From positions 5,582 through 69,581 of the forward strand of contig CADAFS010000004.1 in NCBI GenBank assembly GCA_902787305.1: 64,000 nucleotides of DNA, in the 5' to 3' direction. The notes under the pieces are model-generated. The model had not been told where the DNA came from. It searched no databases and saw only the letters and a list, made by a program, of their open reading frames with translations. This document shows positions 8,131-62,147 of this stretch, piece by piece (position 1 is the stretch's first letter; the number at the start of each line of letters is the position of its first letter). The translations under genes and the position numbers were made by a program. This DNA is from an uncultured Pseudomonadota bacterium (lineage in GTDB: Bacteria; Pseudomonadota; Alphaproteobacteria; Rs-D84).

Positions 8131-8194
8131 ACTTCCTACATTTATAATTTGATTTATATCACATCTTGGCAAAATTGTGGTATAATTAAATGAA

Positions 8195-11732: not shown

Positions 11733-12905
11733 ATGAAAAAGATAAATTTATTCAACCGTAATACAAATTCACCGTCATACCGGCGCAGGCCGGTATCCCG
11801 TGGTATTGTAGAGAATCGTCACACCGCGGAAGCGCGGTGCCCAGGCATCGCGATAGCGATGACTTGCCCCGCAGGGGATTTTTCATCGCAAGGCGATGAA
11901 AAACATAATGTCTGCGACGCAAGTTTTTGCATTCGCAAAAACTGGATCCCGGCCTTCGCCGGGATGACGATGATTGCGATTGCGGCGTTATTTGCCACGC
12001 CATCATTTGCGGAACCAACGGAATTGGATAAAAAAACCGTGGCATCTAAGGCATATGTCGATACGAAACAGGATAAAATCACAACTGGGTTGGTGGAGTT
12101 TAATGACGATCCTGACTATATGTTGCCGGCGATTACGACATATGATTCAACAAGTGGATTGGTTGCAAATAAAATCGGTATTTTGGATTGGCAAACCGCA
12201 GATGATGTGGGTGGATTTCTCGAGAATTTTTCCTACGAGGGTGGTGGTTACGGTTCCGAAATGGATAATTATGTTCCAACCGTTCGTGCCGTAGCGGAAA
12301 GTTTGTCGGATTTACTTAACGTCAAACAAGATAAACTTTCTTTGTTATGGACAAGCACAACAAATCCGTATAATATGGCATCCATGGGTGGGGAAACGAT
12401 TGATTTGACAACGACCCCGGGGATCGTTGATCATCGTTATATCACCGCGGGTGGGTCGCAACCACTTACCAAAAAATCCGGTGCGGATAATGTTATATTG
12501 TATATCAACGGAACAAAAACATTGGCGCAGTATCAAACATCAAACTTTGGTGGAACCGGTGATGGCGCAACCACAAATCAAAACTATATCAAGGGTGCGT
12601 TGGTGTCGTTGGAACTGCTGAAAGATGTGTATAGTGCGTTGCATAATGAAATTCAAAATGCAACCCCAACCGGCACACCGGGTAATGTCGCGATGTATGA
12701 CGCAAGCACCGGTGCGTTGGGCGATGGGGTTGCAACTTATTCCGGTGCAACGGCACAAAATCCGTATAATGCGACAAATGATGCCGCCAAAATCGCCACC
12801 GCCGCCGCGGTTGAAACGAAACAAACCAAACGTGTGTGCGCCGGATACGAACCCGGCCATGAAAATGCCCCCGATTATTGTTGGCTTTGGGATTTTCCGG
12901 ATTAA
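11733..12905 (+). CDS. KAYVD-family exported tail-fibre-like protein A (signal peptide interrupted by an in-frame mosaic element)
   Basis: Strong SD ggagagg before ATG 11733. Contains KTVASKAYVDTKQDKI, ALVSLELLKDVYS and C-terminal CAGYEPGHENAPDYCWLWDFPD. Residues ~13-78 are encoded by palindromic repeat DNA. Confidence 0.7.
   Translation: MKKINLFNRNTNSPSYRRRPVSRGIVENRHTAEARCPGIAIAMTCPAGDFSSQGDEKHNVCDASFCIRKNWIPAFAGMTMIAIAALFATPSFAEPTELDKKTVASKAYVDTKQDKITTGLVEFNDDPDYMLPAITTYDSTSGLVANKIGILDWQTADDVGGFLENFSYEGGGYGSEMDNYVPTVRAVAESLSDLLNVKQDKLSLLWTSTTNPYNMASMGGETIDLTTTPGIVDHRYITAGGSQPLTKKSGADNVILYINGTKTLAQYQTSNFGGTGDGATTNQNYIKGALVSLELLKDVYSALHNEIQNATPTGTPGNVAMYDASTGALGDGVATYSGATAQNPYNATNDAAKIATAAAVETKQTKRVCAGYEPGHENAPDYCWLWDFPD
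11769..11967. repeat. hairpin-mosaic element E2 inside the 5' end of gene A
   Basis: About 150 bp aligns with 13364-13515, including identical 44-nt (11861-11904 = 13406-13449) and 38-nt (11909-11946 = 13455-13492) blocks. Confidence 0.85.
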
Positions 12906-23387: not shown

Positions 23388-24164
23388 ATGAACATAGAAT
23401 ATATAACCTGCAGCGGTATCGGTCCACATAACGATATATCAGAAATTATCAATCTTGGCAAAAATTATGAAAATGCAGAATTTGCGGTTCAGGTAAGTCG
23501 TGAAAAATTTTTCCCATATAATGATAGGTATAATTTCTTTCGAACATTGGTTGCCACATGCACCGTGAATGACGTGAATCTTGCAATGCATGTGAATCTT
23601 GAATATAGGACAGATTTGTGTCGCGGAATTGTCCCGGAATTTTTTCAAGATTTATGGACTATCAAGCGTCAAAAAGGAACACAGAATGCGGACAAACCTG
23701 TTATCGGTCGTGTCCAGATAAATATAAACGGCGGAAATGATAAATTTAAGTTTTATGCCGATAAAGTCGCAGACATAATTCGCGCATACCCGGATATTAA
23801 ATTTATTTTTCAATATGCGCCGGCACAGCATGAACGCGTTTCGAAACTTGATAAAAAACATGTATCATTTGCGCTATTGTATGATGCATCAGGTGGGCGC
23901 GGTATTTCCCCAGAAACGTGGGACGCACCGGTTTTTCAAAGTCATCAAATGGGGTACAGCGGGGGTATATCGCCGGATAATGTTGTTAATAACCTAAATG
24001 ATATAAACGAAATTTTACCCATGGATTATTCGACATGGATTGATGCCGAAGGAAAATTAAAAAGCCCCGATAATAATGGCAAAAAACTGTTCGATATCGC
24101 GTTGGCCGAAAAATATATAGAACGCGCATATCAATGGCAAGTGAAAAACGGGTACAATCGGTAA
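23388..24164 (+). CDS. hypothetical protein with weak TrpF (phosphoribosylanthranilate isomerase)-like C-terminal motifs
   Basis: LLYDASGGRGISPETWD...GYSGGISPDNV resembles LLDxxGGTGxxFDW...LAGGLxPxNV of TrpF; recalled similarity only. Confidence 0.35.
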   Translation: MNIEYITCSGIGPHNDISEIINLGKNYENAEFAVQVSREKFFPYNDRYNFFRTLVATCTVNDVNLAMHVNLEYRTDLCRGIVPEFFQDLWTIKRQKGTQNADKPVIGRVQININGGNDKFKFYADKVADIIRAYPDIKFIFQYAPAQHERVSKLDKKHVSFALLYDASGGRGISPETWDAPVFQSHQMGYSGGISPDNVVNNLNDINEILPMDYSTWIDAEGKLKSPDNNGKKLFDIALAEKYIERAYQWQVKNGYNR

Positions 24165-24257
24165 AAAAATTTCAAATTGCCATTATTACCCTATTGACTT
24201 TTTTTTATAAAAGGTGCTAGGATTCAGGCGGATTAGTAAAATCAAAGGAGAAAACAC

Positions 24258-24635
24258 ATGAAAAAAATACTTATCTATGGTGTCGCGGTCGCCGCTATTG
24301 CGGGATGTTCGGCAAAGGAAGAAACAAAAGAAGTCAAGGTTTTTGATGCATCTTGTGAAAAGGTCGCCGTTTTCGAACAGGGCGATATGATTGTGAAATG
24401 CCCGACCAATGAAACATTGTCTTCGTTGCAAGACCAAACCCCAACTGGTATGTTTGTTCAAGGCGAAGGTTTCGATTTTGCCAGCGCGGCCGCGGATGCG
24501 GAACATGTCTATGTGAACGTTATTCCGGCGGGCGCGTATGAATGGGCGACATATAAAGAATACCGCATAATGGTGAAAAATCCGGTTATGGATGAAAATT
24601 CCCTTTATACCGTTAGCGTTGTGGTTCAAGAATAA
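24258..24635 (+). CDS. small lipoprotein
   Basis: SD aaaggaga; lipobox AIAGC at residues 15-19. Confidence 0.6.
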   Translation: MKKILIYGVAVAAIAGCSAKEETKEVKVFDASCEKVAVFEQGDMIVKCPTNETLSSLQDQTPTGMFVQGEGFDFASAAADAEHVYVNVIPAGAYEWATYKEYRIMVKNPVMDENSLYTVSVVVQE

Positions 24636-24653
24636 TTGAATTTTTGTGTAATG

Positions 24654-24682
24654 AAAAACCATCGGTTTTCCGATGGTTTTTT
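24654..24682. terminator. bidirectional intrinsic terminator
   Basis: aaaaaccatcgg-ttttc-cgatggtttttt between convergent genes. Confidence 0.7.
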
Positions 24683-24696
24683 ATTGTGTAAAAATT

Positions 24697-25230
24697 TTAT
24701 TTTCCCAACAATTCAACACATTCCTTGGTCAACACTTTTAATTGGTCTTCTATTTCCCGACCGTGGTTATAGTATTCGGTTATTTGTTCGATACTAAGGT
24801 TTTCAAACATTTTGTTTGCCGCGCATTTGCAATACTCTGACGCTATACCCAACCCAGCCCCAGATTCCATCGCGCTTTCGACACATTGTTCTGTTATTGC
24901 CGATATAATTTGTTCTTTGGTATCAGAATCTGGCGAATCTAATAATATACCGACACATTCTTTGGCCGAAAGTTCCATCAACTGTTCAATCGTACGCCCA
25001 TGTTTATAGTATTCGGTTATTTGTTCCACAGATAATTCAGATACAACCTTTAACAAAACACAATTACAGTAATCCGAAGCCATTCCAAGTCCGGCACCAT
25101 CTTCCACCATACTATCAACGCATTCTTCCATCGCAGAATCAACAAATTCACGTCCAATTTCAGAATCTGGGCTTACCGCAAATGCCCCGGTACAAGCCAT
25201 CATAATAAATAAAGCAAAGATTTTTTTCAT
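24697..25230 (-). CDS. secreted Cys-containing protein made of two tandem ~75-aa repeats
   Basis: Signal peptide MKKIFALFIMMACTGAFA. Repeats share ...GAGLG[MI]AS[DE]YC.C....LS[VI]EQITEYY.HGR.IE...KECV. Confidence 0.6.
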   Translation of the reverse strand: MKKIFALFIMMACTGAFAVSPDSEIGREFVDSAMEECVDSMVEDGAGLGMASDYCNCVLLKVVSELSVEQITEYYKHGRTIEQLMELSAKECVGILLDSPDSDTKEQIISAITEQCVESAMESGAGLGIASEYCKCAANKMFENLSIEQITEYYNHGREIEDQLKVLTKECVELLGK

Positions 25231-25525
25231 AATTCCCCCCTTTATGTGCCAAGTGTATTATTTTTAATTATGTTTGGTCAATATAAAGTTGCAAAAAATT
25301 CGAAATTGGAATATAATCACAATGTGTCAGAAAGGAGTAAAAAATGCTAACCCTTATATTTGTGATATTAAAACTAACAAACGTGTTAAATTGTTCTTGG
25401 TGGTGGATTGTTTTAACATTGTTATTGGATTTTGGTGTTATACGGATTTTGTAATTGCCACAATAAAACCACAGGGCCCGCGCACGACGGGTCTTTTTTC
25501 AGCATAGATTTAAAAGGGGAATTTT

Positions 25526-25804
25526 ATGAATAATTTTTTAGGCGAAATCGTGGGTTATTTATCTGGTGTTTGCACGACACTGGCATTTTTACCCCAGGCA
25601 ATAAAGTCCATTACCACAAAAAACGTGTCGGGCCTTTCCCTGTATATGTATATCATATATTGCATGGGGTTGGTGTTTTGGATTCTTTACGGTGTGTATT
25701 TGCATTCATTTCAAATAATGTTGTTCAACAGCATTACACTGGTGTTCAATGGAATAATACTATACATGATAATTAAATCCAATTCGAAGAATAAGAAAAA
25801 ATAG
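25526..25804 (+). CDS. SemiSWEET / PQ-loop family transporter
   Basis: 92 aa, three TM helices, LPQ motif in TM1 (TLAFLPQAIKS). Confidence 0.7.
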   Translation: MNNFLGEIVGYLSGVCTTLAFLPQAIKSITTKNVSGLSLYMYIIYCMGLVFWILYGVYLHSFQIMLFNSITLVFNGIILYMIIKSNSKNKKK

Positions 25805-25870
25805 AGAAAATAGGATGTTGATTTTTTAATATATTGTTTTTACAATAAGAACACATCAAGGAGAAATTGT

Positions 25871-26677
25871 ATGAAAAAACTTATTGCCTTAATCTCGGCA
25901 TTATTTTTATCAGCATGTAATGAAAATGACAATGTTGCAATCAACCAAATGAACATAACTACTCGACCACTAACGGCAGAAGAATCATGGGAAAATATTT
26001 TACACAATCATGATATGTATTACAGCGAACTTAAACAATTTTATCCAGAGGTTGATACTTTTATTCCTTTCCCTGGCAATAAAGATATGGAATCTATGTA
26101 CAATAAAGAGGTGTTAACAACCAAAGAAATTGAAAAATATCGTAATATTGTTATAAATGAACTTTATGATATTAAAACATTAAATCGTTTAGACAATGTG
26201 TTTCAACAATATGTAATACCCGAATTACAAAATAAAACAAATGAATATTTAGTGTCGTTATTATCATCATGGAATACACAATTACCAGAAAAATTAGAAA
26301 TATTTTATTTTTACGACTATGGCAGTTATTATAATTATCCAATAAATGGTGTTGCATCAATATATTTTGGTGTAAACAACCCTTCGTTTAGCGCAGACAA
26401 TCCGTTTGATGATAAAGATAAAATATTTAGTTTGGTATTTCATGAATTCATACATACTTTAATAGAAATACCAATAATTCGTGAATACGGTGTTCCGCAA
26501 GATTTAAAAGAACGCATAGTTGATTTGATTTGTTATGAATTTATAAAACGGCCAGTTCAAAAAGATTTTGAAAATTCTTTTGCAAATGCATATATAACCC
26601 CAGATGTGATAAGAACCGATTTGCCCGGTGCAGTTAAAAAAATGATGAAAGATTACAAGGCAGCACAGAAAAAATGA
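25871..26677 (+). CDS. lipoprotein with HExxH (putative zinc metallopeptidase)
   Basis: Lipobox LSAC; VFHEFIHTLIE motif; AT-rich. Confidence 0.5.
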   Translation: MKKLIALISALFLSACNENDNVAINQMNITTRPLTAEESWENILHNHDMYYSELKQFYPEVDTFIPFPGNKDMESMYNKEVLTTKEIEKYRNIVINELYDIKTLNRLDNVFQQYVIPELQNKTNEYLVSLLSSWNTQLPEKLEIFYFYDYGSYYNYPINGVASIYFGVNNPSFSADNPFDDKDKIFSLVFHEFIHTLIEIPIIREYGVPQDLKERIVDLICYEFIKRPVQKDFENSFANAYITPDVIRTDLPGAVKKMMKDYKAAQKK

Positions 26678-26772
26678 TAATAAACTGTTCGAAAATTGGT
26701 AAAAATTAACATGTTTCAGACATGTTATTTTCGAACTGCTCGAATAATATAAAATCCAACAAAAAACCGCAC

Positions 26773-26814
26773 TGTTAAAGTGCGGTGTATCTTTTGGTGG
26801 GAGTATGCTTGCAC
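26773..26814. repeat. 42-bp direct repeat, distal copy (includes a 10-nt pseudo-3' end of tRNA-Tyr)
   Basis: aaaaccgcactgttaaagtgcggtgtatcttttggtgggagt; one mismatch versus 28818-28859. Confidence 0.85.
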
Positions 26815-26961
26815 TAATCGAGCAGAAAACAAACAAGAATTTTCTGATTTAATGCAAGAAGTGAAGCTGTTTAAAGAAAAGTGGTTATGATTTCACCCAT
26901 GGGTGAAATTTGACTGACTTTTTATTTCATGGTACAATAGTAGACAGTAAAAGGATAAACG

Positions 26962-27390
26962 ATGAGAAAACTTTTCGTATTATTTACATTTGTTGTACTT
27001 TGTGGTTGTGTAGGAAGTCAAGATTCGGCAACAAAAAAACAAACTCAGTTGTGTCAGGAGGCCGGTTTAGAATTTAATACTGAAGAATGTTCAAAATATA
27101 TAATAGAACTAGAGAAACGTTTATTAGAAGAACAACAAAAACAGATACAGGAAAGAAATAAAAATTGGTGTGCGGAAGTTGGACTAAAGTTTAATACATC
27201 AGAGTGTGCTCAATATATAATCAATAAAGAAAATCAAATAATGCAAAACGAGAATCAACGCGAACAAATAGATGTATTGAAACAATCTAACAAAATTCAA
27301 GAAAGAGCAATAAAATGTAGAGGCATAAAAGGCAATTCAGGATATGGTGATTGGGGTAATTCTTTTATGCGTGGATTCTATGGATGTTAA
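26962..27390 (+). CDS. small lipoprotein with internal duplication
   Basis: Lipobox LCGC; repeats CQEAGLEFNTEECSKYII / CAEVGLKFNTSECAQYII. Confidence 0.55.
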   Translation: MRKLFVLFTFVVLCGCVGSQDSATKKQTQLCQEAGLEFNTEECSKYIIELEKRLLEEQQKQIQERNKNWCAEVGLKFNTSECAQYIINKENQIMQNENQREQIDVLKQSNKIQERAIKCRGIKGNSGYGDWGNSFMRGFYGC

Positions 27391-27443
27391 TATAAAATAC
27401 TTGATAAACTTGAATAAACAAAAAGGTTAGATTTCTAACCTTT

Positions 27444-28562
27444 TTATAATCCCATCTCAATAATATCTATATATTCTTTGTAAGCATATATTCGATAACG
27501 TTGTTTATTATTTATTTGAACCAAAATCCCTTCAGATTCTAATTTTTTTACCAAAGTGTTTGCTGTTGCATTTGTTACACCAAGTTCTTCTTGTAATTCT
27601 TTAATTGTAATAACAGGATTATTCAATAAAATATCAAAAGCTTTGATAGCTGTTCCTGTTTGTAATCGAGCTCTGTCTCTGTTTTCTAAAGCAATAATTC
27701 TTTTTGTGGTTGTCATTGTTTGTTCTGAAACAGCAATAACCCCCTCTAAGAAGAAGCGTATCCACTGAATATAATCACCTGTATCCCGAACTTTTGTTAA
27801 TGAAGAATAATACTCATTTTGTTTCTTCTTTAAATACAAACTTATGTATAAAGTTGGCGAATAAAGAATTTCTTTATCTATTAAAAATAACAATATCAAT
27901 AACCTACCTATACGACCATTACCATCTTGGAAAGGGTGTAATGTTTCAAACTGATAATGAATCAATGCTGCTTTTATCAAATTAGGATGAATGCCTTGAT
28001 GAATATAATTTTCAATATCATTCATATAAACATCAATATCGGTTGCAACAGGTGGTACATATACAGCATCAGATGGACCTGTGCCACCAATCCAATTTTG
28101 TGATGTTCTAAATTCGCCAGGAGTTTTAAACTGTTCGCCTCCACGAACACCAGACATTAAAACCCTGTGACACATACGTAATAATCGTCCAGACAAAGGA
28201 AGCCCTTTGGGGTTTTGTAAACTATCAACCCCAAAAGTTAATGCTTTAAAATAATTTCTTACTTCCATAACATCTACATTGGAAGGTTTTGAACCTTCTT
28301 TTTCTAAAATCTCAACCAATGTAGATTGGGTGCCTTCTATTTGAGAAGACAATAAAGATTCTTTTAAAGCATACCTTTCTGTTAATAATTTAGGATTTGG
28401 CAACATTTTTTCCAAAGCTCTTAATTCTCCGACAGCTAAATTTGCACGATCAACCAGAGCTTGTATATCAGATAAGTCCAAATCTTTTTCAATAACATTT
28501 AACTTTTCTGGCACAAAAGCTTTGTAGCCTTTCCCTGTTTCTATATAATTTCCACTGTTCAT
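27444..28562 (-). CDS. Fic-family protein (AMPylase-type) with intramolecular inhibitory motif
   Basis: Fic motif HPFQDGNGRIGRLL. N-terminal SSQIEGT matches the [ST]xxxE[GN] inhibitory helix. C-terminal wHTH-like tail. Confidence 0.85.
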   Translation of the reverse strand: MNSGNYIETGKGYKAFVPEKLNVIEKDLDLSDIQALVDRANLAVGELRALEKMLPNPKLLTERYALKESLLSSQIEGTQSTLVEILEKEGSKPSNVDVMEVRNYFKALTFGVDSLQNPKGLPLSGRLLRMCHRVLMSGVRGGEQFKTPGEFRTSQNWIGGTGPSDAVYVPPVATDIDVYMNDIENYIHQGIHPNLIKAALIHYQFETLHPFQDGNGRIGRLLILLFLIDKEILYSPTLYISLYLKKKQNEYYSSLTKVRDTGDYIQWIRFFLEGVIAVSEQTMTTTKRIIALENRDRARLQTGTAIKAFDILLNNPVITIKELQEELGVTNATANTLVKKLESEGILVQINNKQRYRIYAYKEYIDIIEMGL

Positions 28563-28817
28563 AACAACCTCTTTTTTATCATGTTTTATTATAATTACGA
28601 GTACAACATAACAAAATAATTATAAAAAATCAACAAAAATTATAATTAAAAAGTTTTTGTTGTAAGTAATTATACCAATCTATAATTATGCAAACAAACA
28701 GTCAAAAAAGTGTTGGATTTCTAACATTTTTTTACAACACTGTTCGAAGATTGGTGAAAAACGGTGTTTTTTGGATATGCTTTCTTCGAACCATTAAAAG
28801 TATTGTAAATCTAAAAG

Positions 28818-28859
28818 AAAACCGCACTTTTAAAGTGCGGTGTATCTTTTGGTGGGAGT
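28818..28859. repeat. 42-bp direct repeat, tRNA-proximal copy
   Basis: aaaaccgcacttttaaagtgcggtgtatcttttggtgggagt; 28850-28859 is the real 3' end of tRNA-Tyr. Confidence 0.85.
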
Positions 28860-28936
28860 GGGTGGATTCGAACCACCTCAGGCTTAAGCCAACAGATTTA
28901 CAGTCTGCCCCGGCTCTCCAACTCCGGCGCACGCCC
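28850..28936 (-). tRNA. tRNA-Tyr (GTA), long variable arm
   Basis: Anticodon arm GCAGA-CTGTAAA-TCTGT, variable stem GGCTT/AAGCC, T-arm GGTGG-TTCGAAT-CCACC, encoded CCA. A C4:U69 mismatch and C at position 8 are atypical. Confidence 0.7.
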
Positions 28937-28992
28937 GATCTCTAACCTGCCCGTCTCTGTGTGCTTCGCACACTCCGCCGCGGCACAGGATT

Positions 28993-29026
28993 TTCTTAAT
29001 TGTGCGCGCTGCGCGCAATAACGAAA
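28993..29026. repeat. conserved tRNA-trailing hairpin (copy 2)
   Basis: ttcttaattgtgcgcgctgcgcgcaataacgaaa directly 3' of tRNA-Gly. Confidence 0.75.
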
Positions 29027-29031
29027 ATCCG

Positions 29032-29106
29032 TGGTGCGGGCAGCGGGACTCGAACCCGCATATCAAGCTTGGAAGGCTTGCGTACTAGCCCTTGTACTAT
29101 GCCCGC
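29032..29106 (-). tRNA. tRNA-Gly (TCC)
   Basis: Acceptor GCGGGCA/TGCCCGC, D-stem GTAC/GTAC, anticodon loop CTTCCAA, T-arm GCGGG-TTCGAGT-CCCGC, encoded CCA. Confidence 0.85.
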
Positions 29107-39748: not shown

Positions 39749-42175
39749 CTAAAACACAATCGGCGGGAAACAATCACCACCCGTATTCGGACAGCAATTA
39801 AACCCTTGGTCACCCATGTCGGTGTATGTTTCACCCGGACAGCATCCATTGACATCCGGATTCGCGCCACCATCACATGTGATAACAGATGTGTTTTGCT
39901 GTTGCGCCGGCGCGGCGGGCGTTTCCTTTTTGAACGGATTCTTTATAGTGCCATCCGCATTATATTCAAGTCCAAGAACCTGGGTATTATAGTCAACGGT
40001 ATTCGCACCTGTGGTATAATCTGTTTTCTGCACACCCATTTGTTGCTGGTTTTGGAACACCGCTTCTTGCCGTGCATTATTGATTGCGGTATATGTCCCA
40101 AATGAACGACAATAGAAATCAAGCGTCGCAAAACTATAATTTCTACAAATCTCCACATCATTCCAATTGCTTACAGGCACAGATGCTTTTTGTCCTGTTG
40201 GGGCGGTGCAACATCTTTCCTGTAATGAAGCCTGCATCATGGAACGAACCTGACCAATAAGTTCTTCCATATCTGTACTTGGGGTTATGTTATTGGCGGC
40301 CGTTCTCCAATTCGCGCGGTTCTCACCACCTGTACCATCCGCTGCCTTGGTTTGGTATGGTCTTATTGCACACGCCTTACCCGGTTGATCACCACACGTC
40401 ACAAATAAATCAACCGGCGAAAATACGGTAATACGTGTGCCCGCGGCAATTGAAAAAGGCGGTGTTGTATTATTCATAACATCAACCAATAATTTTGTCG
40501 CAACATTATTCCATGCGGTGATAATTTCATTCTTGGCCAGTTCGGATGAACGCACCGTTCCGCTTTGAACAACGGTATTATTATCCAAATCAATCTGATT
40601 CACAAATGCATCGGACACCGGTGCAATCAAATTTACCGCCGCCGGCACAATAGCGGTCAGCATTGGCATAATAAATTGTTGCAAATAATCCGTACTGCCG
40701 TGCCCGGGGACACCCTTGCGTCCTTGGGAATCCGCCGAAAACGGACGTTGGTTATCTTTTGTAAAATTAAACTCAACCCCATCGGGACGAATAAATTGAT
40801 ACCATTCTATTTGCATACGACCAACGGCCTTGTATGGCCCTGGCAAATTCCCCGTCACATACCCCAGCATCAATGTCCCAGTTGGAATAATCACTGTGCG
40901 ACCGTTATCGGAATAAACATTCCTATCCACCGTTGCACGCACCGGAAGACCATTCGTTAACATCTCTGCATCCGCTTGAACATCCGAAACAATTGTCGCC
41001 GGAATTGGTTTATATTGACGCAACACAAATGTCCGGTCATATGGCATAGATGAAAATACACCGTCACTTGCACCAGACCCAAGATACGTTTCTTCTTTGA
41101 CCTTGTTCGGTGTCAACTCCAGTTTTTTCATTCCGCCCATGCCGCTCGATTGCCGCTCGGCAACCAAGGCGTTCAGTTCCGCATCCGTCAATTGCCGTGC
41201 CCGATTCCCGCGTTTCTTTACCGAACGCGCGCCCAATGCGGGTAATTGGTCCGTAATGGTCAAACGAATATGTTCCGCATCCGACCCAATACGCCGCGCC
41301 GGATTATTTATATCCATAATATAACCCGTATCCGGATTATAAATTCCGGTCGGCGTTTTACAATTCACATCGGAAAACGGGTGATAGTAATACGCACCGC
41401 CGTCGGGCCTTATCCAACCCGCATGTACGCCGGATATATTGTATCCCGGAAAAGAAAATTCCGAACAACCCGCGCCCGACGTCGAACCCGTGGGCGTTGC
41501 GGCAACCGTTGGATCCGGCCAATCATATGTCGGCATTTGCGTATTATTAAAATCAAATTCCGGCGAAATATCGTCCACATCTTTTTCAAAATCATACGTC
41601 GGTTCCGGTTCAAAAATCGGGTCCGGTTCATATGTCGGTTCGGGTTCCGGCGCGGGTTGTATCTTTAACGGTTCACGCGCACCAATAACAATAGTAATTG
41701 CGTTTGGTTCGTCACGTTCCACGCCCGTGGCAAAGTCTGTCCATTTAATCGCAACATCAACATTGGTAATGGTAATTGGATGTTCGGGTTCGTATTTCAA
41801 CCGTATTTTGCACGGCATATCCGCATCGATAATAGTATTTTCATTTGTGCATGTTTCGGTTGCCGAAATTCCCGCGGCATCGGTCGTATCACCATCAACC
41901 ACAACATTTACATCCGTCACCTGGACACGGGTATTTGCCGACACAGTATATTCAATTTCGCGCGATTCACCAACATCCGTATCAACCCAGTCAATCGGTT
42001 CATTCGGCGACACAATCAGTTCCGGCGTGACCGCCACCGGTGAATCAACGATCTCAACCTTTTTTGTATCCTTGCCCCGCGTTAGCATCACGAACAACGC
42101 AACCACAACAATGATTGCCACAATAAGCAAGAACCATTGCAACCCACGCGGCGAAGAATCATTTTCCATACTCAT
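39749..42175 (-). CDS. virB10: T4SS core component VirB10/TrbI, extended form
   Basis: N-terminal TM (WFLLIVAIIVVVALFVML), Pro-rich PAPEPEPTYEPDPIFEPEP, and TrbI/VirB10 beta-barrel region (IPATIVSD...VIIPTGTLMLGYV...RMQIEWYQFIRPDGVEF...). ATG 42175 has SD aagggga. Confidence 0.8.
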   Translation of the reverse strand: MSMENDSSPRGLQWFLLIVAIIVVVALFVMLTRGKDTKKVEIVDSPVAVTPELIVSPNEPIDWVDTDVGESREIEYTVSANTRVQVTDVNVVVDGDTTDAAGISATETCTNENTIIDADMPCKIRLKYEPEHPITITNVDVAIKWTDFATGVERDEPNAITIVIGAREPLKIQPAPEPEPTYEPDPIFEPEPTYDFEKDVDDISPEFDFNNTQMPTYDWPDPTVAATPTGSTSGAGCSEFSFPGYNISGVHAGWIRPDGGAYYYHPFSDVNCKTPTGIYNPDTGYIMDINNPARRIGSDAEHIRLTITDQLPALGARSVKKRGNRARQLTDAELNALVAERQSSGMGGMKKLELTPNKVKEETYLGSGASDGVFSSMPYDRTFVLRQYKPIPATIVSDVQADAEMLTNGLPVRATVDRNVYSDNGRTVIIPTGTLMLGYVTGNLPGPYKAVGRMQIEWYQFIRPDGVEFNFTKDNQRPFSADSQGRKGVPGHGSTDYLQQFIMPMLTAIVPAAVNLIAPVSDAFVNQIDLDNNTVVQSGTVRSSELAKNEIITAWNNVATKLLVDVMNNTTPPFSIAAGTRITVFSPVDLFVTCGDQPGKACAIRPYQTKAADGTGGENRANWRTAANNITPSTDMEELIGQVRSMMQASLQERCCTAPTGQKASVPVSNWNDVEICRNYSFATLDFYCRSFGTYTAINNARQEAVFQNQQQMGVQKTDYTTGANTVDYNTQVLGLEYNADGTIKNPFKKETPAAPAQQQNTSVITCDGGANPDVNGCCPGETYTDMGDQGFNCCPNTGGDCFPPIVF

Positions 42176-42197
42176 TACCAATTCCCCTTAAAAAACA

Positions 42198-43748
42198 TTA
42201 CTGTATGCGAACCACCTGGCAACTGGCGCCACTAAACTTTAACAATTGGTCACACAATTGCTGCGCGGTATCAATATCCGGCATCGGCCCGATACGCAAC
42301 CGATACAGCCGCGCCGCCGAAGATGTCGCCCCAAGTTCGCCAACGCCTTCTTCGTCAACGGCATAAAACACGCTGTCTTTATATTTATTCAATAATCCTT
42401 TGCCGTCATTACCACTGAATCGTGCAACCAATCCGGCCCAGTATTCATCCAATGCCTTGACACTGCTGTCCGACCGCAATTCAACGGCGACACCACCTTG
42501 GTTGCTGGTAATAAGTGGTATATTCGAATTCGGCAAATAAGACCCCGCGGTCACGCGTTCGGTTGGCATCATACTTATGCCACGCGTGCCATTGCCCAGG
42601 GCGGGCGCATCATACGTGCCATACATCATCGTGCCCGTATTCATCGGCATCGCCGGCATGGTCGGCAACACCGCGGCATTTGGCACATTGCTAATATACG
42701 TCGGACTTGCGGTAAGGTTTCCGTACCCCGCATTTATCGCGGTCATATTGTCGGCATAAATCATATTATTTAATGAATTGCCCGACATCATACTTTGCGC
42801 AACATTCGCCTCGGCCAATGCCATCACACTTGCGGTGTCGGCAATCAAGAACGGCTTTGCGCGCTTTTTAATACATACAATGCGTTGTCCACTGCGCAGA
42901 ACCATATCGCCCACGGCCTCTACAATAAGCAACCGACCATCTTGACCATCGGTGCGGAACCCGACCGGCGATTCGCCGCCTTCGACCAACAACGACACCA
43001 CGGGACGTTGCGTCATTGAAATAACCTTGTCGCCAAAGTCAATATACGTGAACACACGGTCACGCCATACGCGTTCCGGCGCAATTACATAGTCGTCCGG
43101 ATTTGGAACAAAAATATCCAAATCGAAACGGAATTCCGACGGGTCAATCTTCATTGTTTTAATCCAATCGTAATCTTCGCCATCGACACCGATGCTGGTG
43201 CTTTTCGTATTTGTGTTTTTAAATATGGAATTCATCGACCCGCCACTTGGTGCGGTTGCCGCGCCCGCCATGGGCAAACGGGCATTGCCATCCAAAACAA
43301 CATCAACCTGGGAATAGGTAATTTCGGACGCGTTCGACGGTTCACTGCGCAGATAGAAAGTATAAACATTTCCCGACTTTCCCGTCACAATCAAATTTGT
43401 ATCCGACCCCATATTGTCCGGCGCGGGTGTAATGTAAAGCGTCCGCCCGCCTTGATTTCCATTGATTTGAAAGAACCCTTCGTTTCCGACAACCGCGTCT
43501 TCAATCTGTTCGCCCTTTGGCAAGTTTACCATCGTCACCATACCATTACGCAATTTCACCGGCAACACAGTCCCCGGTTCCCACGCAAGTTGTGCGTATC
43601 CGGGTTTCAAACTGCCACTTGCCATATTGGCGTTTGGATTATCCCACGCGGCCTGAACACCCCAGTTTCCGTCCAACGGCGCCGCCCACGCACCAGATGC
43701 GACAACACATGCGCAAATTGCAAATCTAAAAATCCAAAGTGCTTTCAT
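42198..43748 (-). CDS. virB9: T4SS core component VirB9/TrbG fused to a C-terminal SPOR domain
   Basis: Signal peptide and a VirB9-like N and C domain (NLIVTGKSGNVYTFYLRS...). C-terminal ...LYRLRIGPMPDIDTAQQLCDQLLKFSGASCQVVRIQ is SPOR-like. Confidence 0.75.
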   Translation of the reverse strand: MKALWIFRFAICACVVASGAWAAPLDGNWGVQAAWDNPNANMASGSLKPGYAQLAWEPGTVLPVKLRNGMVTMVNLPKGEQIEDAVVGNEGFFQINGNQGGRTLYITPAPDNMGSDTNLIVTGKSGNVYTFYLRSEPSNASEITYSQVDVVLDGNARLPMAGAATAPSGGSMNSIFKNTNTKSTSIGVDGEDYDWIKTMKIDPSEFRFDLDIFVPNPDDYVIAPERVWRDRVFTYIDFGDKVISMTQRPVVSLLVEGGESPVGFRTDGQDGRLLIVEAVGDMVLRSGQRIVCIKKRAKPFLIADTASVMALAEANVAQSMMSGNSLNNMIYADNMTAINAGYGNLTASPTYISNVPNAAVLPTMPAMPMNTGTMMYGTYDAPALGNGTRGISMMPTERVTAGSYLPNSNIPLITSNQGGVAVELRSDSSVKALDEYWAGLVARFSGNDGKGLLNKYKDSVFYAVDEEGVGELGATSSAARLYRLRIGPMPDIDTAQQLCDQLLKFSGASCQVVRIQ

Positions 43749-43773: not shown

Positions 43774-44430
43774 TTATTTTGATATCCAATTCAACGGGTC
43801 GTTCCCATTCAACACCGTGTATTCCATGACTTTCAGTCCCAACGGATTGTTTAGCCGCTCCACCCAATCAATAATCCTGTCGTTATCCTTGGCCAAAACA
43901 ACACGAATCTTATAGTCCTTTTTATTTGTCGGCCCACTGTTTGATTCACAGTAATATCGTATCGTCACGGTATATGTGTCTTCCTTTAATACCAACGGCG
44001 CACCAATAAATGTGACGGGGCATGTAAACGCAAAGTCCGGATAGTCACCAATAATTGCGTTATACATATCGGTCTGTGTGAATGCCTTGTAAACCGCGGG
44101 CGTGGACCACATTGCAACAACGCCACCTTCGTTACCCCACTTGCGCCGCATAATGGAAGTATTGCGTTCCACTTCGTTCCGGGCGCGGACATATTCCATA
44201 ACGAACGCCTTTTTATATTCGTCCACGTTTTCATCACTTGCCGGCAATTCAGTAATTTGAATACTTGATGAATTTGCGGGCTTGGTCGTGATAAAGAAAA
44301 TTTCGGGTCGATTTAGTGGAAACATTTTCCCCAGTGTCATAAACAATACAAACAGCACCACCGCCATTCCGGCGAATACAAACACAACCAATCTGGACAG
44401 CAAAACAGGCGGTTCTATGCGGTGTTGCAA
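43774..44430 (-). CDS. virB8: T4SS component VirB8
   Basis: Single N-terminal TM, NTF2-like periplasmic domain, C-terminal NNPLGLKVMEYTV motif. Start taken as TTG 44430, preceded by taggagagg; the maximal ORF extends to TTG 44481. Confidence 0.75.
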   Translation of the reverse strand: MQHRIEPPVLLSRLVVFVFAGMAVVLFVLFMTLGKMFPLNRPEIFFITTKPANSSSIQITELPASDENVDEYKKAFVMEYVRARNEVERNTSIMRRKWGNEGGVVAMWSTPAVYKAFTQTDMYNAIIGDYPDFAFTCPVTFIGAPLVLKEDTYTVTIRYYCESNSGPTNKKDYKIRVVLAKDNDRIIDWVERLNNPLGLKVMEYTVLNGNDPLNWISK

Positions 44431-44543
44431 GGTTCCTCTCCTAAACGTTTTTTTTGATTGTAGAAAAAATCTTGCAACCAATGCAAGTAAAAAATAGTGG
44501 TCAGTGCAAATGGAAAGTGTCGGTGTAGTCAGTCATATAGATG

Positions 44544-44660: not shown

Positions 44661-44802
44661 TAAAAATTTTTTCCAAAAAAATGAAAAAAGCACTTGACCC
44701 GATTCGACGAAATTTAGTAGCCTGGTATTAAAGAAATAGTTGTGTTTGTGTGCAAACGCACGGAAACCGGGCTTTTCGGGGCGAAAGGAAGGGAACGAAA
44801 AC

Positions 44803-47322
44803 ATGAAGTTTTTAACGTCGAGAGTTGTTGTATCTGCGATAGCGTCGTTTATTGCGTTTGCAATTGTGCCCGCGATTGCCACCACGCCAGAGGCCGATTT
44901 CAAAACTGTGACGTCCAAGGCATATGTTGATTCATTGATATCCAATAATGATATTTCGGGTCACAAGGTTAATGGCGCGCCATTATCAAATGCGGCATCA
45001 TACTTTTATGGCGAAGGTGTTGGTGCGGCGGACACGGCAACCAAGACGGTTAGCATACCGTCAATAACCGGCACGCCCGCGGTTGGTCAGGTCATTGTTG
45101 TCAAGCCGGCAACAACGAATACCGCATCAACGATGAAGATAAATTTAAACAACACGACGGCATACAGCGTTTTGTATAGGGGCAGTTCTAGCAATATCCC
45201 AAAGGATGTTTGGACGGCATATGTTCCGTCGATATTCGTTTTGGATGTGTCCAGTGGAACAAAATATTGGCGTTATGTCGGGACATCACCGGTGGCGATG
45301 ACATGGTCTGCAACCGAAACTGCCGCGGCCAATGCGTACAGTACTACATTTGACGGCACGACCGGAAATTGGCCGGTGGCGGATGAAAATAAATACGTCA
45401 AGGGTGATTCATTTGCCCAAGGTCTTGCATTGAAACAAAATAAGTTGCCTGCAAAATCCACCGGGAATGCGGCCCCAAAAGGAAATCAGGCCGTTGTATT
45501 GAATACCGCTGGGAATCCATCAAATGTTTACACGACCGCGGGTAAAGATTTGGCGTTAACCGCAAAATCCGGTGCGCAAAAAGTTATGAACTATATTGAT
45601 GGGACAACGGCATCCGCCACGTTTGCAACCAGTCAAGGCCTTACCGAAGCACTGGTTAAATCCGCACTTGTTTCATTGGAACTGCTGAAAGATGTGTATA
45701 GTGAACTGAATTCTAAAATTACGAACAATGCCCTGCCGACGGGGACGGCCGGTACGGTTGTGACATATAACGGAACCAATCCACAAACCGGTGTCCAACA
45801 ATTTACCGAAACCGCTATTGTGGATGCACCGGTATATACAAACGGGGATTTAACAAATGGGGATTCTTTGCCGTCGGTTGAATATGTCGAAGATGCGCTT
45901 GCCACAAAGCAGCCGATAATTCAACCGTCAACCGTTAATGGCAAAACACAAATTGTGGTAAAACCGGCATATGGTGGAACCGCCGGCAATATTGGGTATT
46001 TAACATTGGATACGGCAAGTTTGACAAGTAATAATAGTTATGTTCCGTCTTCAAAATTGGTTGCGGATAGTTTGTTGTCGAAAATGGATAAAAGGGACGC
46101 GTGGTCCGTGGACCAGGCTACAGGTGAGCTTTATAATGATTCAAATGGTGCGCTAACATCTGTATCGTATTTATACCAGGTCCCTGGAATGGCGGATTCT
46201 GGGACGCGGTGGGCAAAAGATGCGATGATCTATTGGGGCGACGAAAAAATTGTTCCGACGATGGATACGTTGGCGGTGTCGCTTACTGGGGTTTTTGACG
46301 CGCTTGATAAACGTATCCAAAATTACCCAGAGGCCAGTGATTATATTAGAGGCCAATCTGTCAAAAGTCCAAGCCAAATTGAATATACCTATGCGCCAAC
46401 ACTTACCGATGGGGCACAGTTGTTTTGGTTGCCATCTCTTGCAAAGGCGGGGGATGAAAAAGCGGATTTTTTACTGGGTGTGTACCAAAAAGAAAAAATC
46501 GTTCCGACCATGGATGAATTGGCGCATGCATTGGATGGTGTTTTGCAAACCCATGAAACCACCAGAGAATGGCAAGCTGTCTTACCTTATTACGGTCTTC
46601 GTGAAATGTCTCTTTTTGAACTTGCAGATATGATTAATATCTCTAACGCTAATGCTATATTACTTAATAGAAGTGGTTATTTGCAAACATTTGCCCCAAC
46701 ATTAGAGGCATTGATGAACGAATCATATGGGTTATACCGATTGATAGATACAAAACAAAATAAATTATCCGGTACCAATGGCGCCCTGGTCACGTATGGT
46801 GCGACCGCGGGTCAAACCGGTTCCAAAGCGATTGCAACCAGTATAAGTAATAATGCCAATACGATACCAAATACGGCGGCGGTTTACAATGCTGTAAATG
46901 CGCGACAAAATGTAATCCCGGTTGCCGGTAAATATCGTTCATCAAACACTATAACAACCGACACAGACATATCTGATTGGACCGCTACAAATATCAAGGG
47001 AACTGCACTGGTGACCAAACCAACGTCGGCAAACGGTGTTGTTGGCGAACGCAAGATTTTCGAAGCCGGCGATACATATACAAACGATGCCGCAACAAAT
47101 ATACAAATCGCGACGATAGGCGCGGTTATGGAAAACATAGAAAACACGGTCACAAAAAGATGCGTCGGATATAAACCCGGTACAAGTGTTCAAAATGCCG
47201 AAAATTGTTGGCTTTGGGAATTTGTAGGCAATTCTGCAAGTTGCATCGCTACAGGTGGATCGTGTACGAATAATAGCGAATGTTGTTCGGGAACCTGTGG
47301 TGTCGGGGGGCAATGTAATTAA
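44803..47322 (+). CDS. KAYVD-family exported tail-fibre-like protein B with C-terminal six-Cys knot
   Basis: SD aaaggaaggg before ATG 44803. Signal peptide ...IVPAIATTPEA and KTVTSKAYVDS. Repeated xPxxxxVxxxL...KQ(D/N)K units, ALVSLELLKDVYS, neck CVGYKPGTSVQNAENCWLWEF and terminal CIATGGSCTNNSECCSGTCGVGGQCN. Confidence 0.8.
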   Translation: MKFLTSRVVVSAIASFIAFAIVPAIATTPEADFKTVTSKAYVDSLISNNDISGHKVNGAPLSNAASYFYGEGVGAADTATKTVSIPSITGTPAVGQVIVVKPATTNTASTMKINLNNTTAYSVLYRGSSSNIPKDVWTAYVPSIFVLDVSSGTKYWRYVGTSPVAMTWSATETAAANAYSTTFDGTTGNWPVADENKYVKGDSFAQGLALKQNKLPAKSTGNAAPKGNQAVVLNTAGNPSNVYTTAGKDLALTAKSGAQKVMNYIDGTTASATFATSQGLTEALVKSALVSLELLKDVYSELNSKITNNALPTGTAGTVVTYNGTNPQTGVQQFTETAIVDAPVYTNGDLTNGDSLPSVEYVEDALATKQPIIQPSTVNGKTQIVVKPAYGGTAGNIGYLTLDTASLTSNNSYVPSSKLVADSLLSKMDKRDAWSVDQATGELYNDSNGALTSVSYLYQVPGMADSGTRWAKDAMIYWGDEKIVPTMDTLAVSLTGVFDALDKRIQNYPEASDYIRGQSVKSPSQIEYTYAPTLTDGAQLFWLPSLAKAGDEKADFLLGVYQKEKIVPTMDELAHALDGVLQTHETTREWQAVLPYYGLREMSLFELADMINISNANAILLNRSGYLQTFAPTLEALMNESYGLYRLIDTKQNKLSGTNGALVTYGATAGQTGSKAIATSISNNANTIPNTAAVYNAVNARQNVIPVAGKYRSSNTITTDTDISDWTATNIKGTALVTKPTSANGVVGERKIFEAGDTYTNDAATNIQIATIGAVMENIENTVTKRCVGYKPGTSVQNAENCWLWEFVGNSASCIATGGSCTNNSECCSGTCGVGGQCN

Positions 47323-60705: not shown

Positions 60706-61656
60706 TTACATATCAGGCCCGGCGGTAAATGTTCCGGTTCCGGCGTTTTCTTTAAATGTTCCGCTTACGGTATCATACATACCTAACACATCGTCGCTGT
60801 TACGACGCGCGGGGACAAGGTTTTGGACCAAGTTCCCATTTTCATTAATGCGCCATGAATATACATAACCTTCAAACCTAAAATATGCGTCGCCACCAAT
60901 CCATAACGGATTAGTGCCAGAAAAATCAGGAACATCACCATTGTATGAATATCCTGTATTATCAAACGTCACACCATTTCTGTTTTGAATAATTTTATGT
61001 TTCGTATTCAAAGAAGTTGTAAAAATGGTGCTTCGCCCGTTCATATTGGCGGTCCCGCCACTACCATTAATATTGTAATACATTCCATTAAAAGACGAAG
61101 TTGACCCCGATGTGCTGTATGCCATTTTACTGCCAGCTTTGGCCAACATTTCCATTTGTAGTTCTGTATTAGAAGACGGAAGAACTTCGGTATTAATCCA
61201 CTGGTTTCCTGTAAATTCAATGTATTCAAGATGTGTATAACCACTTGGTAACATATCCCCATACGCTGTTTGATCGACGATGGTCCACAGGGTGCAGGCC
61301 GGGCTGTTCGCGCATTCCAATTTTGTTGTTGGGGTTGTTGGTAAATTCGTAAATGTCGCATTTAACGCCGATGCGGTAATAAGTTTATCGCCGTCTGTGC
61401 TTGCATCATAATTGCTGATGTCCGAATACAGGCCGCGTTCACCAATTTGGCCATTTCCGGTCGCGGTATACGTCATTACCGTTTCACCCGCACCAACATT
61501 CGGTTGACCCGCCGCGGGGATTTTTAACTGCTTCGTTTCTATCTTCGTATCAACATACGCCTTTGATGCAACGGTTTTCATATCATCTTCGGCATGCGCA
61601 ACATTGGTTATCGCAGTAATCACAAATATCAATGCCAATAATATCTTTTTTAACAT
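60706..61656 (-). CDS. KAYVD-family exported fibre-like protein C with a globular C-terminal domain
   Basis: Signal peptide ...ITNVAHA, KTVASKAYVDTKIETKQLKIPAAG and neck CANSPACTLWTI. These are followed by LEYIEFTGNQWINT...LGMYDTVSGTFKENAGTGTFTAGP. Confidence 0.75.
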   Translation of the reverse strand: MLKKILLALIFVITAITNVAHAEDDMKTVASKAYVDTKIETKQLKIPAAGQPNVGAGETVMTYTATGNGQIGERGLYSDISNYDASTDGDKLITASALNATFTNLPTTPTTKLECANSPACTLWTIVDQTAYGDMLPSGYTHLEYIEFTGNQWINTEVLPSSNTELQMEMLAKAGSKMAYSTSGSTSSFNGMYYNINGSGGTANMNGRSTIFTTSLNTKHKIIQNRNGVTFDNTGYSYNGDVPDFSGTNPLWIGGDAYFRFEGYVYSWRINENGNLVQNLVPARRNSDDVLGMYDTVSGTFKENAGTGTFTAGPDM

Positions 61657-61697: not shown

Positions 61698-62147
61698 CTA
61701 ATTACTAGTCCCGGTATTACTGTTACTATTATTACCGTTGCTGTTTCTGCCATATACTTGTTGATCTTCAATGGTCCATAAACTGCATGTACCCGGATTC
61801 GCACAGGTCAATTTTGATGTTTCCATTGTGGGCAAGCTTGTGACACTGCCCTTTAATGCCGATGCGGTCACCAATTTATTTCCGTCCGTTCCCGCGGTAT
61901 AACTTGTTGGGTCACTGTATATCCCGCGTTCACCGATTGTTCCGTTTCCAGTTGTTGTATACATCACAACCGCCGTTCCGGCGTTCGCGCTGTTTGTTCC
62001 CGCGGCCGGGATTTTTTCTTGTCGTGTTTCAACCGATGTATCAACGTATGCCTTGGACGATACAGTCTTACGGTCGGTTGATGTCGTTTCCGCATACGCG
62101 GTGCCAATCATAACAATTCCGCACAACAATAAATTTCCGATTCGCAT
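61698..62147 (-). CDS. KAYVD-family exported fibre-like protein D (stalk and neck only, N/S tail)
   Basis: SD aaggagag; signal ...GTAYA, KTVSSKAYVDTSVETRQEKIPAAG, neck CANPGTCSLWTI. Ends in NSNGNNSNSNTGTSN. Confidence 0.7.
   Translation of the reverse strand: MRIGNLLLCGIVMIGTAYAETTSTDRKTVSSKAYVDTSVETRQEKIPAAGTNSANAGTAVVMYTTTGNGTIGERGIYSDPTSYTAGTDGNKLVTASALKGSVTSLPTMETSKLTCANPGTCSLWTIEDQQVYGRNSNGNNSNSNTGTSN

Follow-up and report, generated by a model that had tools for sequence, protein, structure and literature searches.

Our findings describe a knottin-like module of 26 residues that closes the C-terminus of an 839-residue, apparently secreted fibre-like protein (fibre protein B), encoded in 64,000 nucleotides of DNA (referred to here as the window) from an uncultured rumen alphaproteobacterium. 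In our preferred reading, to which we assign a probability of about 0.5, this module is a disulfide-locked knottin-type terminal cassette that provides an optional and variable binding surface, as well as a cap, on a diversifying exported protein. Knottins, which are built on the inhibitor cystine knot (ICK), are valued as ultra-stable binding scaffolds, and work on them has dealt almost exclusively with animals, plants and fungi. The fold itself is a known one, and the databases contain related microbial modules; what appears to be new is the architecture and the population behaviour, that is, an apparent natural experiment in which loops diversify on a fixed scaffold in a plug-in end domain, variable in copy number, of a rapidly diversifying putative surface protein.

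Sequence, predicted fold and conservation of the terminal module

Translation of positions 47242-47322 on the plus strand gives CIATGGSCTNNSECCSGTCGVGGQCN followed by a stop codon, with the knottin-like module itself at 47242-47319. Its six cysteines are spaced C-x6-C-x5-CC-x3-C-x5-C over 26 residues, as an initial annotation made from the letters had proposed, and the module sits, again as described there, directly behind the CWLWEF segment (47206-47223) of a conserved neck and a short linker, VGNSAS (47224-47241, plus strand; alignment A6), whose length differs between alleles. All eight cysteines of the carrier fall within its last 53 residues and none within the first 786; two belong to the neck, CVGYKPGTSVQNAENCWLWEF (47161-47223, plus strand), and six to the final 26 residues. 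A broad regular expression for the six-cysteine pattern found a single match in the six-frame translation of the window, compared with a mean of 0.023 in 300 shuffled windows, seven of which (~2%) held at least one match. By itself the pattern is therefore moderately unlikely to arise by chance, which is suggestive and inconclusive; we reject a chance origin because the cysteine framework is conserved among relatives, where the post-neck cysteine count is 6, 12 or 18 in all 16 proteins that extend past the neck.

A full-length homology search with the carrier returned 66 relatives. Most of these end 2-4 residues past the CWLWxF of the neck (e.g., ...CWLWDFPD), and 11 extend beyond it with one or two C-C-CC-C-C modules, to which an exhaustive profile search and look-ups added members with two modules (P0179, P0229/L003 and P0230) and with three (P0111). 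Word-indexed searches yielded five candidates with the module profile A3, one of which matched (the two-module fragment P0067), and three short fragments only with the neck-plus-knottin profile A6. The module recurs, in one to three copies, on 16 relatives of the KAYVD family, where the initial annotation had advised looking for it; cysteine positions that vary among homologues had been named beforehand as grounds for refuting the knottin assignment, and these positions proved to be conserved. In total we distinguish 23 modules, all with the C-C-CC-C-C framework and present as one, two or three copies per tail. Conservation outside the cysteines is confined to the loop-1 glycine, [ST][DE] ahead of the CC pair and [SD]G behind it, with the other loop positions highly variable. 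The net charge of these 23 modules runs from -3 to +1, and aromatic residues are absent from 14; the module in the window carries -1, against +5 for the omega-conotoxin SVIB.

With Pfam Toxin_21 (cut-off 21 bits) the isolated 26-mer reached 20.9 bits, compared with 10.9 bits in the context of the whole protein, and it matched UPF0506, Conotoxin_I2, Toxin_12, Toxin_18 and Omega-toxin more weakly. The carrier reaches the gathering threshold of none of the Pfam knottin families (Toxin_21, Conotoxin_I2, Omega-toxin, Toxin_12 and UPF0506), and we therefore call the module knottin-like (ICK superfamily), not a member of a conotoxin or spider-toxin family. Against PDB sequences, phmmer with the 26-mer retrieved U3-scytotoxin-Sth1a (5FZV) at a borderline E-value of 0.039, together with nemertide alpha-1, SVIB and omega-atracotoxin-Hv1a, and a profile of 15 modules retrieved Xt3a (3.1e-5), DkTx (6.1e-4) and Aca toxin 1 (1.5e-3). 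The 34 profile matches listed consist throughout of small peptides or domains rich in cysteine: ICK toxins of spiders and cone snails make up the majority, and cysteine-rich domains of Dickkopf, one antifungal peptide and one spider lectin make up the remainder. The likeness of the CCSGxCG stretch to omega-conotoxins, to which the initial annotation pointed, holds for SVIB (CCSGSCG) in our alignment.

AlphaFold2, supplied with an alignment of 13 rows, modelled the module with a predicted local distance difference test (pLDDT) score of ~85 over the cysteine core. When the C-terminal 188 residues were modelled, the mean pLDDT was 49, confidence was confined to the neck hairpin and the knottin, and no fold could be identified for the stalk; the module, at 75-86, was again the best-predicted part. 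Foldseek searches of the PDB returned nearly all ICK peptides (1HVW, 5FZV, 6ENA, kappa-SrXIA, Dg12a, SGTx1 and hanatoxin), at E-values of 0.2-10 that are sub-significant and limited by the 26-residue size. The top three, omega-atracotoxin-Hv1a, U3-scytotoxin-Sth1a and nemertide alpha-1, have probabilities of 0.92-0.99 and superpose with a root-mean-square deviation (rmsd) of 0.6-1.1 Å over 26 aligned residues, and the best five ICK matches fall at 0.6-1.4 Å over 26-27 residues. Among the viral models of BFVD, the top five matches are baculovirus conotoxin-like peptides and the rest are mostly giant-virus proteins. The conserved cysteines, the model superposition at 0.6-1.1 Å, the profile E-values of 3e-5 to 1.5e-3 and the near-threshold Toxin_21 score (20.9 against 21 bits) together support the knottin assignment made in the initial annotation, and we predict for the module, with good confidence, the ICK/knottin fold with a small antiparallel beta-sheet.

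The position behind the neck looks like a site of exchange. Depending on the allele it holds nothing, one knottin, a knottin array or an acidic tail or, in paralogues, an unrelated 190-residue domain, and because so many different tails are tolerated there we consider the position to be solvent-exposed, not buried in an anchor. Many knottin alleles continue with an extra unstructured tail of 7-20 residues beyond the knottin. At the locus of the fibre gene itself, one knottin is present in the window (P0001), L002, P0008 and P0011, two are present in L003 and P0009, and none in L004, P0014 and P0025. Flanking proteins are 93-100% identical between these loci, compared with 68%, 56% or 31% for the fibre. 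Relative to the orthologue from RUG774 (L002), the stalk adjoining the module is 90% identical, with a ratio of nonsynonymous to synonymous divergence (dN/dS) of 0.15; in the knottin 8 of 19 non-cysteine positions are identical, dN is 0.59 and dS is saturated, figures that come from a sample of only ~20 codons. That dN and dS are raised together would point to recombination, the cassette having an older or independent past, and not solely to faster change in place.

Carrier protein and possible roles of the module

The gene of fibre protein B (44803-47322, plus strand) lies in an open reading frame (ORF) listed as 44740-47322, and we set its start at the ATG at 44803 (MKFLTSRVV...) because the identical 839-residue database protein, P0001, begins at that residue; this is almost certainly the true start. 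The protein opens with a predicted Sec signal peptide, MKFLTSRVVVSAIASFIAFAIVPAIA|TTPE (44803-44880, plus strand), which was read from the sequence, as was its putative cleavage site, and not by a prediction tool. The signal peptide has no lipobox cysteine, and P0002, P0004 and P0007 keep the same N-terminus. The family motif KTVTSKAYVD follows (44902-44931, plus strand), present in the four paralogues of the window and in homologues. The N-terminal domain (residues 25-148; 44875-45246, plus strand) is 45% identical to a region of the PTR (PF12789) protein P0056 (BLASTP, E = 4e-22), which is encoded on a phage-like contig that also carries a holin and an integrase; the PTR counterpart of this domain sits near the C-terminus of phage tail-repeat proteins. 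On that contig (L011, 8001-15668) the PTR gene of P0056 lies upstream of a reverse-transcriptase gene (RVT_1), at a distance of ~2.6 kb, and the holin and integrase are near; this arrangement may represent a diversity-generating retroelement that targets a tail fibre. In a goat omasum metagenome-assembled genome (MAG), RGIG2769, the same-locus ORF (L003, 1-6531) exceeds 2,176 residues and runs off the end of the locus; it contains the PTR-like N-terminal domain of the window protein at least five times and ends in two tandem knottins.

The carrier as a whole is rich in S, T, N, G and A and mosaic, with modules in common with its three paralogues in the window, and has conserved ends and a hypervariable middle. 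The neck is defined by the invariant residues C136, C151, W152, L153 and W154 (alignment A5) and is modelled by AlphaFold as two strands with a pLDDT of 58-74, in which the two invariant cysteines probably close a beta-hairpin. In P0230, a 160-residue fragment from an ENA metagenome with two knottins, the first neck cysteine is lost (TKTFVEYKPG versus TKTCVEYKPG) and CWLW and all 12 knottin cysteines are retained; therefore, either the neck disulfide is not strictly needed or the change is a sequencing error. Searches of the full carrier identified no Pfam family above the cut-off, the sub-threshold knottin matches at the C-terminus being its sole Pfam matches, and no PHROGs or NCBIfam family; the same three collections gave no family for the three paralogues. 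A PDB sequence search with the whole carrier found no match, nor did tblastn of the carrier and of its N-terminal domain against 50,697 GenBank phage records.

In the mechanism that we propose, the carrier would be exported by Sec, the neck and knottin would be oxidised in the periplasm, and the knottin would be displayed at the exposed end of the protein, where it would withstand both proteases and reduction. The variable loops on their fixed scaffold would form a strain-specific putative binding surface, in effect an adhesin-type tip, directed at some cell or surface of the rumen as its partner, and the knottin would simultaneously cap the end of the fibre. The organism does make extracytoplasmic cysteine-rich domains, as seen in the invariant neck cysteines and in a conserved tail on the neighbouring VirB10.

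We acknowledge that a number of points weigh against this proposal. The module falls short of every Pfam knottin threshold, the fold call is based on AlphaFold with a shallow alignment of 13 rows, the Foldseek E-values are sub-significant, and the sample behind the knottin divergence is small. The knotted I-IV, II-V, III-VI connectivity is a prediction from superposition of the model on true ICKs, and we infer the terms 'fibre' and 'surface-exposed' from the composition and mosaicism of the protein, its signal peptide and its hypervariability. We found no known outer-membrane export or anchor domain in the carrier, and its N-terminal domain resembles a phage domain that lies near the C-terminal end, which leaves the argument from orientation for a distal tip weak. 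The rumen is also strongly reducing, and no DsbA- or DsbB-like gene was found among 20 further ORFs of the window, a result that says nothing on the genome as a whole.

The main rival, which we consider somewhat unlikely, is that the module is a purely structural cap: a hyper-stable plug with no specific ligand that protects the C-terminus from rumen exo- and endoproteases or that registers or terminates fibre folding, with loop variation reflecting neutral drift, or antigenic or phage-evasion variation. The pattern of conservation is consistent with such a role, as the conserved residues are scaffold ones only (the cysteines, the loop-1 glycine, [ST][DE] and [SD]G), and the loops are small, polar and rich in G, S, T and N like the fibre, with no conserved charged or aromatic 'pharmacophore'; in unrelated secreted proteins the module also forms the long tandem arrays typical of structural spacers. 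Against a protective role stand the many same-locus alleles and the majority of paralogues that do without a cap, a copy number that ranges from 1 to 3, and the 7-20-residue tail after the knottin, which would stay unprotected in many alleles.

It is improbable, in our judgement, that the module is not a knot at all but a cysteine-rich tail that makes inter-chain disulfides (between subunits, or with another cysteine-rich chain, for instance the VirB10 tail), holds a metal ion or stays unfolded under the reducing conditions of the rumen. The conserved six-cysteine tail of the neighbouring VirB10 offers a potential partner for such bonds, and no Dsb gene appeared among the window ORFs examined. 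However, the framework, including the CC doublet and the loop lengths, fits the ICK, and the 6,5,0,3,n arrangement dominates hundreds of modules elsewhere; AlphaFold2 gives a compact knottin confidently twice over, alone and in the 188-residue context; and the cysteines always occur in multiples of six, as fits self-contained domains. By inspection, the module also contains none of the CxxC or histidine motifs typical of metal sites, on which ground a zinc-ribbon or other metal site was rejected. A six-cysteine peptide of the SCIFF type, among the ribosomally synthesised and post-translationally modified peptides (RiPPs), was rejected as the module is part of an 839-residue Sec-exported protein, not a short precursor.

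The knottin is a classic inhibitor scaffold, represented by the squash trypsin inhibitors and the potato carboxypeptidase inhibitor, the latter of which inserts its C-terminal tail into the active site. A terminal module that blocks a host, protozoal or bacterial protease would suit a protease-rich environment, and the C-terminal placement recalls the carboxypeptidase inhibitor, yet we regard this role as quite improbable: the Pfam, PDB and Foldseek matches include no squash or carboxypeptidase inhibitor family and consist instead of toxin-type ICKs, Dickkopf and antifungal peptides, loop 1 varies freely where a conserved reactive-site loop would be needed, and the tails after the last cysteine are wholly different between alleles. 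The weakest alternative, and a very improbable one, is a toxin or antimicrobial peptide that would be cleaved from the fibre as its carrier to attack ion channels or membranes, whether in protozoa, fungi, bacteria or host cells; the nearest solved structures are indeed neurotoxins, nemertide alpha-1 has the identical C6C5CC3C5C framework with 12 of 26 residues identical, and the best profile matches are bivalent 'double-knot' toxins that parallel the tandem modules, but the module is fused to an 800-residue protein, the VGNSAS linker has no dibasic or other processing site recognisable by eye, neither linker nor loops are conserved across alleles, and the charge and aromatic content given above differ from those of SVIB (+5) and nemertide alpha-1 (+3, with three aromatics). 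The initial annotation had envisaged a receptor-, channel- or protease-binding warhead, and of these a venom-type cationic channel blocker seems unlikely because the modules range from neutral to acidic and contain few aromatics.

Locus, neighbouring genes and paralogues

The fibre gene occupies a slot between the divergent virB10-virB9-virB8 genes on one side and tRNA-Trp/secE-nusG-rplKAJL-rpoB on the other in every related genome or contig examined (at least nine, from the rumen). The relatives come from ruminant gut MAGs, namely RUG774, goat and yak omasum RGIG MAGs, and the Stewart, Xie and Tong assemblies. A prophage gene was rejected on the basis of this conserved housekeeping-gene context. 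All three vir genes of the window are on the minus strand: the virB8 homologue (43774-44481; Pfam VirB8), which is divergent from the fibre gene and keeps its synteny in L001, L002 and L005-L009, the virB9 (CagX) homologue (42198-43748; Pfam) and the virB10 (TrbI) homologue (39749-42181). In VirB10 the Pfam TrbI domain spans residues 387-587 and is followed by an extension of ~220 residues that ends in a six-cysteine tail, CDGGANPDVNGCCPGETYTDMGDQGFNCCPNTGGDCFPPIVF (39752-39889, minus strand). The pattern of this tail, C-x10-CC-x15-CC-x6-C, is near-invariant in five related loci, unlike the hypervariable neighbouring fibre, and the tail is a different cysteine-rich domain, possibly surface-exposed.

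These neighbours raise the idea that the fibre is a surface appendage working with a type IV secretion system (T4SS), with exchangeable end-pieces of zero to three knottins whose hypervariable loops would recognise the target and so choose the partner cell that the T4SS engages, be it a protozoan, a fungus, a bacterium or the host epithelium. We think this doubtful. The divergent adjacency to virB8-9-10, kept in every locus examined, is synteny only, the other flank is secE-nusG, and the paralogues lie elsewhere. If true, it would be the first bacterial use of a venom-type knottin scaffold as a diversifiable adhesin tip and an entry point to a large unrecognised prokaryotic knottin family. For rumen microbiology, a hypervariable locus beside T4SS core genes probably helps to set the cell-cell or cell-host specificity of this uncultured alphaproteobacterial lineage.

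The three paralogues of the carrier share a start composed of a signal peptide and KTV[AS]SKAYVD. Fibre A (11733-12905, plus strand; orthologous locus L010) carries the KAYVD motif and stops at the neck, CWLWDFPD, with no knottin; the true start of this ORF is probably downstream of the listed one, near MTMIAIAALFATPSFA. A second paralogue (60706-61656, minus strand) combines the KAYVD motif with a neck-like C-x5-C-TLWTI and a different C-terminal domain of ~190 residues, which had no database match, including by tblastn against GenBank phages. The third is short (61698-62147, minus strand), with the KAYVD motif, a neck-like C-x5-C-SLWTI and an N/S-rich tail.

Two further regions of the window were recorded. 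At ~24000-28600 lies an island of low GC content (0.30-0.37, compared with ~0.45 elsewhere) that looks horizontally acquired; it encodes a Fic/DOC-HTH protein (27444-28562, minus strand) and several ORFs with no Pfam match, and adjoins tRNA-Tyr and tRNA-Gly (28850-29106). Positions 2895-9490 contain four consecutive minus-strand genes (426, 485, 405 and 523 residues) and a plus-strand gene of 431 residues, all with no Pfam match, the 523-residue product being a multi-pass membrane protein by appearance. In L010, ORFs of corresponding length (405, 431, 171 and 235 residues) precede the fibre-A orthologue in the same order, which suggests that the block is conserved there, and its products may be VirB6-like or other T4SS-associated proteins.

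Wider family and comparison with known systems

An exhaustive hidden Markov model search of 1.84 billion cluster representatives with the module profile identified 228 proteins at E<=1e-3 and 17 at E<=1e-10, almost all of them tandem arrays of 2-15 modules, with the best E-values down to 1e-23. Among 146 of the profile matches the 6,5,0,3,n framework is dominant (mostly 6,5,0,3,4-10), and the arrays sampled pass Pfam gathering thresholds for Conotoxin_I2, Toxin_19, Toxin_12, Omega-toxin or UPF0506. Clearly bacterial matches include proteins of Myxococcota and Myxococcales MAGs (e.g., MGM0597221.1, P0069, and MCA9521927.1, P0090), proteins with a twin-arginine (Tat) signal (e.g., P0078) and a lipoprotein fused to a cytochrome c domain. 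Others look fungal-like, with Kex2-type repeats, or insect-like: in P0087 the copies are separated by Kex2 sites, resembling a fungal repeat-peptide precursor, and in the insect-like P0072 and P0073 the modules are spaced by NRFGG linkers. In P0068, eight copies in tandem precede a large uncharacterised domain. The module is, as far as these sequences indicate, spread across kingdoms and part of a large, mostly uncharacterised tandem knottin-like family in bacteria and eukaryotes.

The remark in the initial annotation that knottins are rare in bacteria stands for the studied literature, as the KNOTTIN database paper lists bacterial knottins of which none has an experimental structure (PMC5753296), and does not extend to metagenomes, where some of the 228 matching representatives are clearly bacterial. 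Beyond that database remark, our literature search on bacterial knottins on fibres, adhesins or T4SSs found nothing relevant. The frequency of related modules in metagenomic proteins, including Myxococcota and Tat-exported ones, points to a sizeable unexplored prokaryotic knottin-like reservoir.

Several known systems resemble the carrier or its module in part. Trimeric autotransporter adhesins such as YadA and BadA are large, variable and repetitive surface fibres of Gram-negative bacteria, including Alphaproteobacteria, and have conserved 'neck'-like connectors. Their C-terminus, however, is a beta-barrel anchor where fibre protein B has its neck and knottin, and we rejected membership of this class as no YadA anchor, head or stalk and no Hep_Hag or HIM Pfam domain was found at E<=1. 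Phage tail fibres and receptor-binding proteins are alike in architecture, being long, mosaic, repetitive and rich in S, T, N and G, with conserved ends, a hypervariable middle and swappable C-terminal domains behind the neck, and one domain (residues 25-148) is 45% identical to phage PTR (PF12789) proteins. The carrier is nonetheless not one of them: it is chromosomal, in a non-prophage slot at nine loci, has a Sec signal peptide and matches neither a PHROG nor a GenBank phage.

For the module itself, the animal ICK toxins (1HVW, 5FZV, 6ENA, SVIB/MVIIC, Xt3a 7RZ3 and DkTx 7L2M) share the C-C-CC-C-C framework, the CCSGxC motif and a predicted backbone within 0.6-1.1 Å. Nemertide alpha-1 (6ENA), with its identical framework, also starts CIATG..., and the tandem 'double-knot' arrangement of Xt3a and DkTx is paralleled by the multi-module alleles. 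These toxins are small venom-gland peptides made from a prepropeptide, whereas the module described here is the C-terminal domain of an 839-residue bacterial exported protein, and SVIB and nemertide alpha-1 are cationic, unlike the neutral to acidic, aromatic-poor modules with no conserved channel-binding residues. In particular, the module has no Conus prepropeptide and does not belong to the omega-conotoxins (O-superfamily), with which it has in common only the scaffold and CCSGxC. The baculovirus peptides Ctl-1 and Ctl-2, the best viral structural matches (probability 0.99-1.0, rmsd 0.9-1.7 Å for most), are likewise non-animal carriers of the fold, but these insect-virus products are short secreted peptides that stand alone and form no part of a larger protein. 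Closest at the profile level are the microbial tandem knottin-like arrays (P0069, P0090 and P0078), which have the 6,5,0,3,4-10 framework and the [ST]DCCSG core and are secreted or exported. In those proteins 2-15 copies often make up most of the chain and pass Pfam thresholds, whereas in the family described here one to three copies form the end of a long, cysteine-free fibre-like protein.

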